Source: Deltaproteobacteria bacterium
GTDB taxonomy: Bacteria > UBA10199 > 2-02-FULL-44-16 > JAAZCA01
Direction of reading: 5' to 3'
Assembly: GCA_018645265.1 (NCBI GenBank)
Contig: JABGOS010000079.1
Coordinates: forward strand, 11,924-64,771
Length of the DNA: 52,848 nt
Each line of letters begins with the position of its first letter. Position 1 is the first letter of the stretch. Below are positions 5,505 through 32,621 of this stretch, one piece after another. The translations under genes and the position numbers were made by a program. The notes under the pieces are model-generated. The model saw nothing but the letters and a program-made list of their open reading frames with translations, was not told the DNA's origin and ran no database searches.

Positions 5505-5600
5505 ATTTAGTTAATATCGCTTCACTTTTTATCCTCCGAGACGATTCTATGCCACAAGATTATGAAGGTGGCCTCATTCAATAGATAGTAATTTCGGAGG

Positions 5601-6533
5601 ATGGTTATGAGTATAACATGCGGATCACAGATGGTAGCCGGTTTAACGGTGCCACGAATTCCACTGGTTTTGATTGAAGGTGGAACTTATCAACTTGGAA
5701 GGTGTAGTAGTATAGCTTTGTCAACTTTTCGAATGGCTATTACTCCTACAACGAATGCGCAGTATTCATCTGTTGTGCAACAGCTTGGCACGGCACGCTA
5801 CTTCATGGAAACGACCGATCCCGTAAATGGCAGATCGTTCGTAGTGGCAAGGGGTGATGATCCGGAGGAGATAAGAAACGCAGATGAGCTGGAAGTTCAG
5901 GGGTGGTTTCGCGAAGCTGGATATCCCGACTTGGCGGATGATCACGATGGACGGGGTGCGCTAAATGTAATTTCTGTTGGGGAGTTCGATCCAAAGACGG
6001 GCTTTGACACGCGCGGGCAACCCGCCGTGGAGGTTACGTGGTATGGAGCTCTTATTTTCGCAGAAATGATGAGGCTGGTAACTGGTAATGATTATGCTCT
6101 GCCTACGGAATATCAGTGGGGATGGGCTGCGAAGGATGGCAATGCTGGTTTGGGTTATGCTACAGACACGGGTCAGCTAAGTCCGAAATCGGCTCATTAC
6201 GATCACGACTATCCTGAGGAAGCAGACCCAAACGTTCCCGCAATAACTACGGTTCATGTTTATGATCCCCGTTATCCTGAGATGGGGAATGGACTTCGTC
6301 ATATGACCGGTAATGTGTGGGAGTGGACGAGTACGTGGGATGGTAAATTACCTAAAGGCCTACTTGAGGATCCTGTCGGTCCAAAGGCCGGTTCTTGGAA
6401 AAGTCATTGCGGTGGATCCTGGAGGGAGTTCATGTCTGACTCACTTAATTCCAGTGCGTTGCATCACGCTTTGCAAACTTACAGCTCCAGTGATCTTGGT
6501 TTTCGTCTCGTGATTAATGGGGGTGGGGTATGA
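5601..6533 (+). CDS. Formylglycine-generating-enzyme (FGE/SUMF1) fold protein, no signal peptide
   Basis: P.TNAQY, QPAVEVTWY.A..F, LPTEYQW.WAA, GLRHMTGNVWEWT, GGSW, DLGFRL. Confidence 0.88.
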   Translation: MVMSITCGSQMVAGLTVPRIPLVLIEGGTYQLGRCSSIALSTFRMAITPTTNAQYSSVVQQLGTARYFMETTDPVNGRSFVVARGDDPEEIRNADELEVQGWFREAGYPDLADDHDGRGALNVISVGEFDPKTGFDTRGQPAVEVTWYGALIFAEMMRLVTGNDYALPTEYQWGWAAKDGNAGLGYATDTGQLSPKSAHYDHDYPEEADPNVPAITTVHVYDPRYPEMGNGLRHMTGNVWEWTSTWDGKLPKGLLEDPVGPKAGSWKSHCGGSWREFMSDSLNSSALHHALQTYSSSDLGFRLVINGGGV

Positions 6534-7459
6534 GTATAGCATATGGGGCAAAAATGGTGGTGGGTTTAACGGCACCTGTGATTCCAATGGTTCCTATAGA
6601 AGCTGGAAGATATCAAATGGGCGCTGGTGGCGGCATGCATTCCATCTCCAGTTTTCAGATGGGGGTGCACCCGGTGACGAACGGGGAGTATGGCCATGTT
6701 GTGAATCAGCTTGGTGCGGAAAGATATTTTGCAATTGCGACCGATCCCAGAAGTCATCGACCTGTCTTGGGTGCAAGGGGAGATGAGGGTATATTTGATA
6801 TTGCCTCACACGAATTACTGAGTGCAATATACTATATGGGTAGTTCTGTTAGCGTTAGTGACTTGCCAAGGTTCGCAGGCAGTATACAATTTGTAAAATT
6901 AGAAGAACGCCACTTGGTTGGCCTGGAGAGGTTCTATGGACCTAAACAACCTGTGGTCGATGTCGCCTGGTTTGAAGCGGTTATATTTGCAGAGATCATG
7001 AGGATGATAACTGGAATCGACTATCGTTTACCAACCGAAAAAGAGTGGGAGTGGGCAGCGAGGGGTGGTGATCTTGCTTTGGAATATGGAACGAGCACAG
7101 GTCGGATTGATCGAAGTATGGCTCATTACTGCCGTGGTGGTGATGTAAATAATACTATTGATGTTGATGATGCCCGTTATCCTTCAATGCCAAGTGGACT
7201 TCGTCACATGGCCGGGAACGTGCGTGAGTGGACGTTAAACTGGTATGCGGATGATCCAAGCGAATCTCCCATCTATTTGTTCGATTCTGGAAGAAGTGTG
7301 GGTAAGGTGACACGCGGAGGAAGCTGGATGGATGACACCACTTCCTCCTTGAGTGTAGAAAACAGATATCACCATCGTGTTGATGGATATGGTATGGATC
7401 TTGGTTTTAGACTTATGGCACTTACTCCTTTTGGGGATAACCAGCGAATCACCCCATAA
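6530..7459 (+). CDS. FGE/SUMF1-fold protein, tandem paralog of 5601..6533
   Basis: PVTNGEY, QPVVDVAW, RLPTEKEWEWAARGG, GLRHMAGNVREWT, RGGSW, DLGFRL; ATGA overlap with upstream gene. Confidence 0.9.
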   Translation: MSIAYGAKMVVGLTAPVIPMVPIEAGRYQMGAGGGMHSISSFQMGVHPVTNGEYGHVVNQLGAERYFAIATDPRSHRPVLGARGDEGIFDIASHELLSAIYYMGSSVSVSDLPRFAGSIQFVKLEERHLVGLERFYGPKQPVVDVAWFEAVIFAEIMRMITGIDYRLPTEKEWEWAARGGDLALEYGTSTGRIDRSMAHYCRGGDVNNTIDVDDARYPSMPSGLRHMAGNVREWTLNWYADDPSESPIYLFDSGRSVGKVTRGGSWMDDTTSSLSVENRYHHRVDGYGMDLGFRLMALTPFGDNQRITP

Positions 7460-7504
7460 ATTGAACCTATTGCATAGCCCTCCTCCCCATGATAAGCAGC
7501 TTCA

Positions 7505-31474: not shown

Positions 31475-31538
31475 GACTGCTCAAAGAATAATTAGTTAAT
31501 AATATTGAGGTGTTATGATATTAATAGGGGGATGCTAC

Positions 31539-32552
31539 CTACTTGAGTCGGAACATAACTGCACTCCTGCCGAGTCTCCTGGGCGTATCACTCCTATTCC
31601 CTTCACATCCGTAATGTTGTGAAAAATCAGAGGTCAAGTCCCTTCCATTCTCTAGAGCCCATTCCTTGTATACGCTGATATTATCTATTATGAAGATCTT
31701 TCCATCACCGCTCTCGATGCTTTGCTCAGCAGCGTCACTCAGTTGCTTCATCGCATATTCTCCATCTTCAGGATCATAATTCATAATTACGTCAGCTCTA
31801 TCGTAATCCATTTGTCTGAAATATGGTGGATATTTATCGCATGAGCCGTATTCGGAGCATAGATCGAGCTGTTCTGTGAAATCTCCCTTTTTCCCCAGCA
31901 CGAAGAGCAGTTCAAAATCCTTCGGTTCTCCAGATAAGGTGCGGTATTGAAAATTTATTATTAACTCTGAATGGGTTTCGGTTTCTTTTCCGCGTCTTTC
32001 TTTAACGCTCTGTATCCTTCCTTGTCCTTCAAGTAGCGAGAGTTCCCTATATATCACTTTAAAATAATCGGCATCGATCTCTGTGTATGTGAAACGAACA
32101 TTGCAGTAATCGGTATTTTCAAGGGCTTGCAAGCCTAGCTCCAGAGGAGCCATGTGGTGACCCGAAGCATAGTATAAAAAGTTCAGGGTATCGTCATCCG
32201 ATTCGGGCTCTGTTAAATAATCGTCGATTAGCACTTCGGAAATTTCTTGGAAGGACACTAGGTCAGTATAGATGCCCATTTCGCTAAGACCCCATATCTC
32301 AGGTACGGTATCTGGCGCAAGAATTGGACCGTCAGTGGTTTGGCAAAGAAGAGATGTCCTGAGGCAGGGTTCTCTCTTTTGACACAGATCAGCAGTTTTG
32401 GGGTGATCTCCAACAATTCTGCATGTGCTTACTGCATCTAGTAGTATAGTTTGATCAGCTATCGCAGCGTCTATCGTTTTACAGCGCTCATCTATTTCGC
32501 GGCACCAGTCGTGTGGTACACGTGTTTCTCTAAGATAGTCAGTGTATGACAT
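31539..32552 (-). CDS. Hypothetical protein, paralog of 30438..31409
   Basis: Same motif series; GGAGG RBS. Confidence 0.72.
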   Translation of the reverse strand: MSYTDYLRETRVPHDWCREIDERCKTIDAAIADQTILLDAVSTCRIVGDHPKTADLCQKREPCLRTSLLCQTTDGPILAPDTVPEIWGLSEMGIYTDLVSFQEISEVLIDDYLTEPESDDDTLNFLYYASGHHMAPLELGLQALENTDYCNVRFTYTEIDADYFKVIYRELSLLEGQGRIQSVKERRGKETETHSELIINFQYRTLSGEPKDFELLFVLGKKGDFTEQLDLCSEYGSCDKYPPYFRQMDYDRADVIMNYDPEDGEYAMKQLSDAAEQSIESGDGKIFIIDNISVYKEWALENGRDLTSDFSQHYGCEGNRSDTPRRLGRSAVMFRLK

Positions 32553-32593
32553 ATCGACCTCCCATTATTTTTTGTAATATTACCGCTGACTAA

Positions 32594-32621
32594 TTATCGT
32601 CGATAAGGAGGGGTGAAGTGC
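32594..32621 (-). promoter_or_regulatory. Alternative-sigma promoter-like motif (variant)
   Basis: Minus strand GCACTTCACCCCTCCTTATCGACGATAA. Confidence 0.55.

Follow-up and report, generated by a model that had tools for sequence, protein, structure and literature searches.

A dispersed sigma-28-type promoter set with a GCAAC -35 element and its candidate link to a non-flagellar type III secretion cluster in a deltaproteobacterial genome

Introduction

The closest precedent for the promoter set described here is the FliA attack-phase regulon of Bdellovibrio bacteriovorus, in which a TTAAG-N16-CCGATA element stands at 92 of the 140 promoters mapped (Karunker et al. 2013; PMC3627812). Our subject is a 52,848-nucleotide stretch of DNA from Deltaproteobacteria bacterium (hereafter the window, part of contig C152 of the assembly), in which a motif of the form GCAAC-N16-18-CGA(T/G)AA stands before narrowly distributed genes; the motif recurs across the genome and its relatives, together with a single FliA/WhiG-like sigma factor encoded in a type III secretion (T3SS) gene cluster. 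The two cases are alike in having a sigma-28-type element at about 100 promoters, in reaching many uncharacterised non-flagellar genes within a global programme and in belonging to small-genome former deltaproteobacteria, whereas Bdellovibrio is flagellated and uses a near-canonical -35 element. The present system differs in its GCAAC -35, in an altered region 4.2 of the sigma factor, in a genome where no flagellin or rod genes were found, and in having, across the phylum, the sigma gene placed inside a non-flagellar T3SS cluster.

For the promoter itself, the reference point is the Pseudomonas aeruginosa sigma-28 open complex, in which the -10 element is (-15)GCCGATAA(-8) and the -35 element (-36)TCTAAAG(-30), with residues S224 and Q228 of region 4.2 contacting -35 bases (PMC12784957). 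The fliC class-3 promoter of this species (TCTAAAG ... GCCGATAA) has in common with our motif the identical -10 8-mer, the register of the half-sites and a sigma of the FliA/WhiG type. Canonical sigma-28 systems are unlike ours in the -35 element, which is GCAAC here, and in that neither filament, hook or rod genes nor FlgM was found in this genome. They also differ in size, with canonical sigma-28 regulons comprising a few dozen promoters as against about 120-140 here.

Other secretion-linked regulons offer partial parallels. In Pseudomonas syringae and Erwinia, the T3SS-encoded sigma factor HrpL acts at a single hrp box that marks both apparatus operons and dispersed effectors, so that candidate effectors can be listed across a genome from the box; the likeness is one of function, whereas HrpL is an extracytoplasmic function (ECF, group 4) sigma with a different box and the sigma considered here is of the group 3, flagellar type. 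Campylobacter jejuni exports sigma-28-dependent non-flagellar proteins (Feds, CiaI, FspA) by its flagellar T3SS, and there, too, sigma-28 promoters stand before signal-less non-flagellar proteins that leave by a type III gate, although this involves a handful of genes, a flagellated organism and canonical promoters. Chlamydial sigma-28 (RpsD) illustrates a non-flagellated T3SS bacterium that keeps a FliA-type sigma for stage-specific late genes, but its regulon is small, and it is sigma-54 that is linked to T3SS effectors in Chlamydia (PMC7482065). In Myxococcus xanthus, a needleless T3SS* and a Tad-like Kil pilus act in prey killing (PMC12075869); compared by description, this is likewise a basal-body-like system without a recognised needle in an ex-deltaproteobacterial lineage. 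The genome studied here has a Tad-type cluster with a secretin and a type II secretion system (T2SS) cluster. Neither a sigma-28-type regulon nor a large cargo set is known to us for the Myxococcus T3SS*, and titles and abstracts in the literature yielded no account of the present motif or of a T3SS regulon in this lineage. 

Materials and methods

The assembly comprises 2.24 Mb in 161 contigs and is rated 95.6% complete. Genes (1850, 85% coding) were called with a simple codon-bias open reading frame (ORF) caller, which leaves open-ended ORFs uncalled and gives approximate start codons. A weight matrix was trained on genome-wide motif sites, and its scores are given in bits. For comparison, 30 relatives were searched, along with 73 genomes of the phylum (24 families, 62 genera, one class); the latter are mutually related, so that counts over them are not independent tests. 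The Pfam scan (E <=1e-4) covered 116 of 119 regulon proteins (48,012 aa), the three longest being left out, and its control drew on eight random 20-kb stretches, which held 125 non-regulon genes, the first 116 of them supplying the control proteins (37,641 aa). N-terminal composition was compared between 96 regulon members without a signal peptide and 1300 other proteins.

Results and discussion

A promoter-like motif in the window and across the genome

The window contains three exact matches to GCAAC-N16-18-CGA(T/G)AA, compared with a mean of 0.21 in 100 dinucleotide shuffles, none of which reached three. The sites and the genes that follow them are:

19319..19350, minus strand: promoter P1, sigma-28-type with a GCAAC -35 (strict motif 19321-19347), 23.4 bits
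18202..19290, minus strand: regulon gene, 362 aa, with a Pro-rich N-terminus and a C-terminal CrtO-like domain
29931..29962, plus strand: promoter P2, with the -10 variant CGAGAA (strict motif 29934-29960), 23.4 bits
29990..30433, plus strand: regulon gene, a 147-aa orphan without a Pfam family
31444..31477, minus strand: promoter P3, with a full GCCGATAA and an 18-nt spacer holding a C-rich stretch (strict motif 31446-31474), 30.1 bits
30438..31409, minus strand: regulon gene, 323 aa, without a Pfam family and with an N-terminal extension of ~70-90 aa

All three end about 30-37 nt before the starts of their genes, the last A of CGATAA in P1 lying 31 nt ahead of the ATG at 19290 and P2 ending 30 nt before the ATG at 29990. 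The original prediction had named five sites in this region as a dispersed promoter set; these three are exact and strong, whereas the other two, described below, fail on matrix score.

Genome-wide, the strict pattern has 107 matches. The reversed genome gave 8, four scrambled half-site versions gave 2-11, and wrong spacers gave 10 (N10-12) and 14 (N22-24), which bears out the idea of a promoter set dispersed over the genome (107 strict matches against 2-14 in controls). Seventy-seven strict sites fall within 150 nt upstream of a called gene, and their spacers are N16 in 53, N17 in 12 and N18 in 12 cases. Their consensus is (A/C)GCAAC(T/A)TT-N11-GCCGATAA, with flanks (T)GCCGATAA(T), and the -10 box opens with G (49 of 77) and C (46), followed by the pattern-fixed CGA(T)AA and then by T in 43. 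Scanning with the matrix returned 146 sites at or above 16 bits (6 in the reversed genome) and 161 at or above 14 bits (20 in the reversed genome). Most of the latter (119/161) stand within 200 nt upstream of a co-oriented gene, while the remaining 42 comprise 20 intergenic sites toward a contig end with no called gene, 6 intergenic sites with a distant gene and 16 intragenic sites. Among the 119 regulon genes, one of which encodes a 625-aa protein elsewhere in the genome behind a 28.6-bit site, CGATAA stands a median of 41 nt ahead of the start codon, and 110 are monocistronic, with no co-directional neighbour within 60 bp, giving a regulon of about 131 called genes. These counts put the predicted regulon at about 120-140 promoters, or roughly 7% of genes.

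The 20 strong sites that point off contig ends (e.g. C122:16622, C135:478, C52:149, C86:24508) go with a tendency of assembly breaks to fall in or beside regulon genes, a pattern to expect of strain-variable or repetitive genes.

In its -10 consensus the motif has the full 8-mer GCCGATAA, the same as the sigma-28 element, and the half-sites are spaced as in sigma-28 promoters, with the -35 pentamer beginning 19 nt before the G of GCCGATAA. The dominant spacing places GCAAC at -34 to -30, where TAAAG stands in the P. aeruginosa sigma-28 promoter. The -10 box and the spacing are those of the sigma-28 class, and in the -35 register GCAAC takes the place of TAAA(G); nowhere in the genome does the canonical TAAA-N15-GCCGATAA occur. 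A sigma-28-type -10 combined with GCAAC instead of TAAA had been proposed from the window, and the consensus over the 77 sites agrees. The motif very probably defines a sigma-28-type promoter regulon.

A FliA/WhiG-like sigma factor inside a T3SS cluster

The genome encodes four sigma-70-family proteins (RpoD, one RpoH-like, one ECF and one FliA/WhiG-like), so that the FliA-like sigma anticipated from the promoter is indeed present, in single copy:

C142:713-1597, inside the T3SS cluster: FliA/WhiG-like sigma factor, 294 aa, single copy

By sequence it appears to be a divergent member, or a sister, of the FliA/WhiG family. Its closest solved relatives are WhiG (3e-26) and FliA (1e-25), and on the chlamydial sigma-28 model it scores 88 bits against a cut-off of 378. 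In the region 4.2 helix, ESRVSQ of WhiG aligns to KSWTSR, and all 14 orthologues aligned have the form KSW(T/V)(S/C)R. On the assumption that P. aeruginosa and WhiG have the same helix here, the Gln of ESRVSQ is Q228, which is Arg in this sigma. We think it likely that this particular sigma reads the motif.

An uncharacterised 163-aa gene (L025:1600-2088, on C142) begins 3 nt past the sigma stop codon and occupies that position in every one of 13 relatives. Its product, which matched no Pfam or NCBIfam family, has an N-terminal half that varies among relatives and a highly conserved C-terminal hairpin. In the AlphaFold model (mean pLDDT 56.6) the N-terminal half is disordered and the C-terminal part forms a helical hairpin with pLDDT 70-79, and a Foldseek search of this model against the PDB returned nothing at E <=0.001, only generic hairpins. 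We considered the protein as an anti-sigma factor, but it may equally be a rod-type (SctI/FliE-like) protein. The FlgM-type anti-sigma family PF04316 has no match in the genome.

A mosaic secretion apparatus

The window holds one T3SS gene, sctV, and the sigma gene lies among others on a second contig. The features concerned are:

C142:1-13355 (locus L025): T3SS cluster, in the order 132-aa gene, sigma, 163-aa gene, FliG-like (weak), FliH/SctL, ATPase SctN, YscO/FliJ (SctO), FliK/HpaP-like (SctP-like), FliM-like, FliN/SctQ-C, FliO, SctR, SctS, SctT
15495..17672, plus strand: sctV, the only FHIPEP gene of the genome (PF00771, 2.3e-235)
25428..27641, plus strand: 737-aa protein with FHA (YscD-cytoplasmic-like), TPR and PEGA domains (Pfam)

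Although sctV had been described as a lone gene of its family, and is the sole FHIPEP gene of the genome, other apparatus genes lie on other contigs: as that earlier hypothesis would lead one to expect, genes for SctL, SctN, SctO, SctQ, SctR, SctS, SctT and SctU were found. The SctV product scores 801.6 bits on the NCBIfam HrcV/SctV model (cut-off 692) and 687.3 on FlhA (cut-off 772), and the gene in the SctR position scores 233 bits on SctR (cut-off 208.6) versus 192 on FliP. SctU, encoded on C104 behind a 23.1-bit site that lies 19 nt upstream, reaches 358.1 bits (cut-off 358). The ATPase (SctN 602.5 bits versus FliI 624) and the SctS product (SctS 75.5 versus FliQ 91) fall just below the SctN and SctS cut-offs, as does SctT (145.1 bits), for which the flagellar model scores about equally. 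The relative L016 (cluster at L016:1-10490) has an SctJ-type gene of 301 aa and a small TPR gene in the stretch upstream of sigma, and the product in the SctJ position scores 140 bits (139.9) on SctJ and 30 (29.8) on FliF; our contig C142 begins at the homologue of the gene two genes past this stretch.

The cluster also retains the flagellar order fliG-H-I-J-K-M-N-O-P-Q-R and encodes C-ring and export accessories (FliG_M 29.4, FliG_C 23.6, both weak, FliM 81.8, FliN 67.4 and FliO 47.6 bits), whereas flagellin (PF00669) and rod/hook (PF00460) families have no match in the 95.6%-complete genome. A check on flagellar genes had been part of the original prediction, and what it turned up was C-ring- and export-like genes only. 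Taken together, the model scores point to a deep-branching mosaic T3SS built of injectisome-type and flagellar-type parts. The FliG-like gene occupies the place that sctK has in injectisomes.

The 737-aa window protein is 42% identical to the product of a 584-aa gene that borders the T3SS cluster of L016. Both window FHA proteins (23021-24073 and 25428-27641) match the YscD cytoplasmic-domain family, and they may be T3SS-associated ring or regulatory proteins. Three secretins are encoded in the genome, one in the T2SS cluster, one in the Tad cluster and one cut by a contig end.

Conservation across the phylum

The motif and the sigma factor extend through the whole sample. Every one of the 73 genomes has 21-126 strict matches, against 0-6 in a backwards-read control, and a single sigma orthologue (53-78% identity), while SctV is present in 72 and above its curated cut-off in 69. 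By hand count, and with fragmented assemblies, at least 23 of the 73 have the sigma gene and an SctV-type gene on one contig and no more than 20 kb apart. All nine relatives whose loci were scanned have 1-4 sites of 16.8-31 bits upstream of the sigma gene, at a distance of 0.8-8 kb and on its strand; L016 has four, each 20-45 bp before a T3SS-cluster gene, including the operon with sctJ. The promoter set therefore takes in sctU in the present genome and the sctJ and sigma operons in relatives.

About one-third of the sampled genomes have a second FHIPEP gene, at ~600-730 bits and below the SctV cut-off (e.g. G003, G024, G046, G048, G062, G068). This second gene is possibly flagellar FlhA, in which case some members of the phylum would be flagellated too.

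What the regulon encodes

Regulon proteins matched only 47 Pfam families, compared with 170 for the control, and no family occurs in more than two of them; the three longest (3084, 1833 and 1575 aa) have no Pfam match. A paralogue of any kind exists for just 25 of the 119, and the three window regulon genes are present in 1-2 of the 30 relatives. Enrichment before orphan genes, as originally suggested, is thus upheld by both the family counts and the narrow distribution. DUF4423, peptidase S41, thrombospondin-3 repeats and AAA are each found in two regulon proteins, and other families include SctU, lytic transglycosylase, M15 peptidases, GAF-GGDEF, FGE-sulfatase and PCMT. None of the best 25 of the 47 families is a eukaryote-like domain. 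Multi-pass membrane proteins are depleted in the regulon (7/119 vs 256/1731, p=0.006).

Members without a signal peptide begin with an unusual composition. Over residues 2-25 the fraction of P, S, T, Q, G and A is 0.450, as against 0.334 in the rest (p=1.3e-14), and the charged fraction is 0.190 as against 0.261 (p=1.2e-7); over residues 61-200 the corresponding values are 0.371 vs 0.335 (p=5.7e-7) and 0.247 vs 0.255 (p=0.13). Type III export signals are uncleaved, rich in Ser, Thr and Pro and poor in charges, and the predicted N-termini of the regulon fit this description.

Seven regulon proteins, and none of 1731 others, start with M-x(0-2)-S-[AG]-[AG]-[EDI] (e.g. MFSGGE, MLSAGE; genes C13:2647, C13:5977, C64:17715, C81:15026, C104:34860, C133:2343 and C3:81), which may be a common N-terminal signal or a processing site. 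Plain MG starts are found in 11/96 regulon members vs 67/1300 others (p=0.018). Myristoylation-like MGxxx[STAGCN] N-termini were considered as well, but at 3/96 vs 13/1300 (p=0.09) the difference is not significant.

A proposed mechanism and its alternatives

In the mechanism that we propose, the sigma factor, a lineage-specific group 3 member of the FliA/WhiG family, would read the motif as its promoter class. Its regions 2 and 3 would still recognize GCCGATAA at the canonical distance, and the recognition helix of region 4.2 would have changed along with the -35 element, GCAAC replacing TAAAG. It would drive some 120-140 mostly single-gene promoters, T3SS apparatus genes among them, and the motif carried by its own operon in relatives would imply positive feedback. 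Further members would be surface proteins and exported ones that belong to the same life stage, together with a large and rapidly turning-over set of proteins without families, whose Pro/Ser/Thr/Gln-rich, low-charge N-termini are candidate type III export signals. Flagellar class-3 logic would in this way have been moved to a non-flagellar T3SS, with one sigma co-expressing machine and cargo. Transcription start positions, the secretion of the products and their targets are things that we infer from sequence. That a lineage-specific FliA/WhiG sigma in the T3SS cluster drives both the apparatus and a cargo-like orphan regulon is, as a whole statement, somewhat probable in our judgement; that most regulon members without a signal peptide are T3SS substrates falls a little short of an even chance. 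A bolder version, in which FliA was kept by the whole phylum as master switch, with its -35 reading rewired from TAAAG to GCAAC, for a T3SS that is deep-branching and flagellum-like but non-motile, and in which the promoter tags at least 100 rapidly changing secreted effectors per genome, is a possibility that we put forward tentatively.

A number of observations weigh against the proposed mechanism. On the side of the sigma factor, the top family, FliA_WhiG (TIGR02479), scores 140.8 bits, below its cut-off of 189.6, and the sigma's own promoter is out of view in this assembly, where the contig starts just upstream. The connection between sigma and motif is drawn from family resemblance and co-occurrence, both being in all genomes sampled, with no contrast case among them. 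As for the apparatus, no matrix site of 8 bits or more stands upstream of sctV; SctJ/FliF (PF01514) was not found in this assembly, in which the contig is broken at that place; no T3SS-specific secretin was identified among the three genomic secretins; no needle family was recognised among ten small proteins tested (eight from the regulon, one from the L016 cluster and the FliO-like protein of C142); and no needle, translocon or effector chaperone is among the best 25 of the 47 regulon Pfam families. Regarding the cargo, ordinary enzyme families occur in the regulon (deformylase, uridine-kinase-type PRK, thioredoxin and a DnaJ-domain protein), and a hydrophobic signal- or lipoprotein-like N-terminus is found in 23/119 (19%) of its members vs 431/1731 of the rest (p=0.19). 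The N-terminal bias could reflect disorder in young orphans, internal regions leaning slightly the same way, and start-codon errors from the crude gene caller would blur the comparison with the background.

Because of the signal-like N-termini and the ordinary enzymes, the regulon is not purely T3SS cargo. The original prediction of a sigma factor, a genome-wide regulon and a T3SS connection is thus borne out, but not its picture of a regulon purely of signal-less orphans: the lack of Sec signals holds for the window genes and not for the 23 genome-wide, and the absence of the motif before housekeeping genes, true in the window, gives way genome-wide to a few ordinary-family enzymes that carry it.

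These same members lend some weight to another explanation, namely that the motif marks a global life-cycle regulon (attack, dispersal, attachment) in which the FliA-like sigma is a general stage regulator and the T3SS is one of many functions, most products staying in the cytoplasm or envelope or being exported by Sec or by further routes. Bdellovibrio provides the precedent, its attack-phase promoters including many non-flagellar genes (PMC3627812), and the signal-like N-termini, the thrombospondin-repeat, S41, M15, lytic transglycosylase, GAF-GGDEF, deformylase, thioredoxin and PCMT members, the monocistronic units and the absence of effector chaperones from the best 25 families would all suit it. 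However, the sigma gene is embedded in the T3SS cluster and is near SctV in at least 23/73 genomes, T3SS operons bear the motif, the shift in composition falls mainly within the first 25 residues of signal-less members, and 47 families as against 170 with a narrow distribution are typical of effector repertoires. As a replacement for the proposed mechanism we consider a general stage regulator unlikely. The life-cycle and T3SS-effector readings are compatible, and a broader regulon fits about as well as a pure effector one.

That the motif is read by some other sigma, whether RpoH-like, the single ECF or RpoD with an activator, is very improbable. One ECF and one RpoH-like sigma do exist in the genome, and a lipoprotein gene that lies immediately upstream of the RpoH-like gene has a site before it; GCAAC with a -10 starting in CG also has a superficial resemblance to the AAC / CGT promoters of ECF sigmas. 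The -10, however, is the full 8-mer GCCGATAA at sigma-28 spacing, the ECF operon has no such site in its own upstream 200 bp, and the conserved sites lie in the cluster of the FliA-like sigma in the relatives scanned; in view of the full GCCGATAA box and the FliA-like sigma we set the ECF-promoter reading aside. Nor is there much to recommend a dispersed repeat or compositional artefact with no promoter function, the chance of which we regard as negligible. A subset of sites has in common a longer, C-rich spacer (CCCCCCTCCCTGCCGATAA-like), a hint that upstream regions were duplicated, but only the half-sites are conserved, most spacers vary, orientation and distance to start codons are strict, and the motif is conserved across 24 families and genomes of 45-59% GC.

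If the proposed mechanism is true, one 27-nt signal lists a candidate secreted arsenal in each genome, at 21-126 strict matches apiece, and gives a direct handle on the lifestyle of organisms never grown. The promoter would also represent a natural re-targeting of sigma-28 -35 specificity alongside a defined helix change in region 4.2, and the apparently mosaic apparatus (SctV, SctJ, SctR and SctU together with FliG-, FliM- and FliO-like proteins, flagellar order and a FliA-type sigma) bears on the origin of injectisomes from flagella. Should the phylum-wide FliA version prove true, the system would stand as a living intermediate between the class-3 regulation of flagella and the effector regulons of injectisomes, and its promoter would be a ready key, at the level of sequence, to the effector sets found throughout a predatory or parasitic phylum.

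Genes and minor features of the window

In the 362-aa protein behind P1, the match to Pfam PF18927 (CrtO, 5.5e-15) covers residues 242-337 only. Homologues of this gene occur in 2 of the 30 other related genomes searched, and a 40%-identical homologue in another family (G023) has a 23.5-bit site just upstream. The 147-aa gene behind P2 has a counterpart in the same-genus genome only, among the 30 relatives, and an Atlas search with its product gave no usable match. Among those relatives the 323-aa gene behind P3, apart from its adjacent paralogue, has an orthologue in the same genus only (77%), and the tandem pair was likewise confined to that genus. Atlas compared the 323-aa protein with clusters of S-adenosylmethionine (SAM) methyltransferases at feature scores of 0.90-0.94 and structure TM values of 0.45-0.59, in alignments that begin at residues 9-91; as a lead, it and its paralogue probably have a class I SAM-methyltransferase fold behind an N-terminal extension.

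Orthologues of the window genes have retained the promoter, at 25.8 bits for P3 in the same genus, at 23.5 bits for P1 in G023 and at 16.5 bits for the weak site listed below; the exception is the 147-aa gene, whose same-genus orthologue has a degenerate copy only (ACAAC-N16-CGAAAC, <10 bits). The remaining features in this part of the window are:

31539..32552, minus strand: tandem paralogue of the 323-aa gene, 337 aa, without a Pfam family
32594..32621, minus strand: weak, diverged promoter copy with a -35 of GCACT and a -10 of GACGATAA, 4.3 bits, membership doubtful
32639..32654, no strand: palindrome GTATAC-N4-GTATAC, 17 bp upstream of the weak promoter 32594-32621
5487..5502, no strand: second copy of the palindrome, upstream of the FGE-sulfatase pair and 17 bp upstream of 5520-5547

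The 323-aa and 337-aa proteins share 42% identity over residues 16-322, which corrects the description of the downstream genes as four unrelated ORFs: 30438-31409 and 31539-32552 are tandem paralogues. The site at 32594-32621, proposed as a variant of the motif, is only half convincing, its -10 half scoring well (10.7 bits) and its -35 half poorly (-5.3 bits). It may nevertheless be a weak, diverged copy of the promoter, because in that place a 16.5-bit site with GCACC stands before the same-genus orthologue. A weaker version had also been placed at 5520..5547 (plus strand), before the FGE-sulfatase pair (PF03781, 5e-22 and 3e-33) downstream of 5487-5547; its best matrix score is -5.2 bits, and we do not count it in the promoter class.

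The 16-bp palindrome GTATAC-N4-GTATAC has five copies in the genome, all between called genes, the other three being at C70:18711, C101:33674 and C153:11686. No GTATAC palindrome with a spacing of 0-3 or 5-12 occurs in the genome. The element is probably the operator of some dimeric regulator.

The window regulon genes lie in a biotin-centred neighbourhood, with a BioY transporter at 29316-29867 and, at 32702-36921, an oxaloacetate-decarboxylase-type Na+ pump (beta, alpha) and a biotin ligase.

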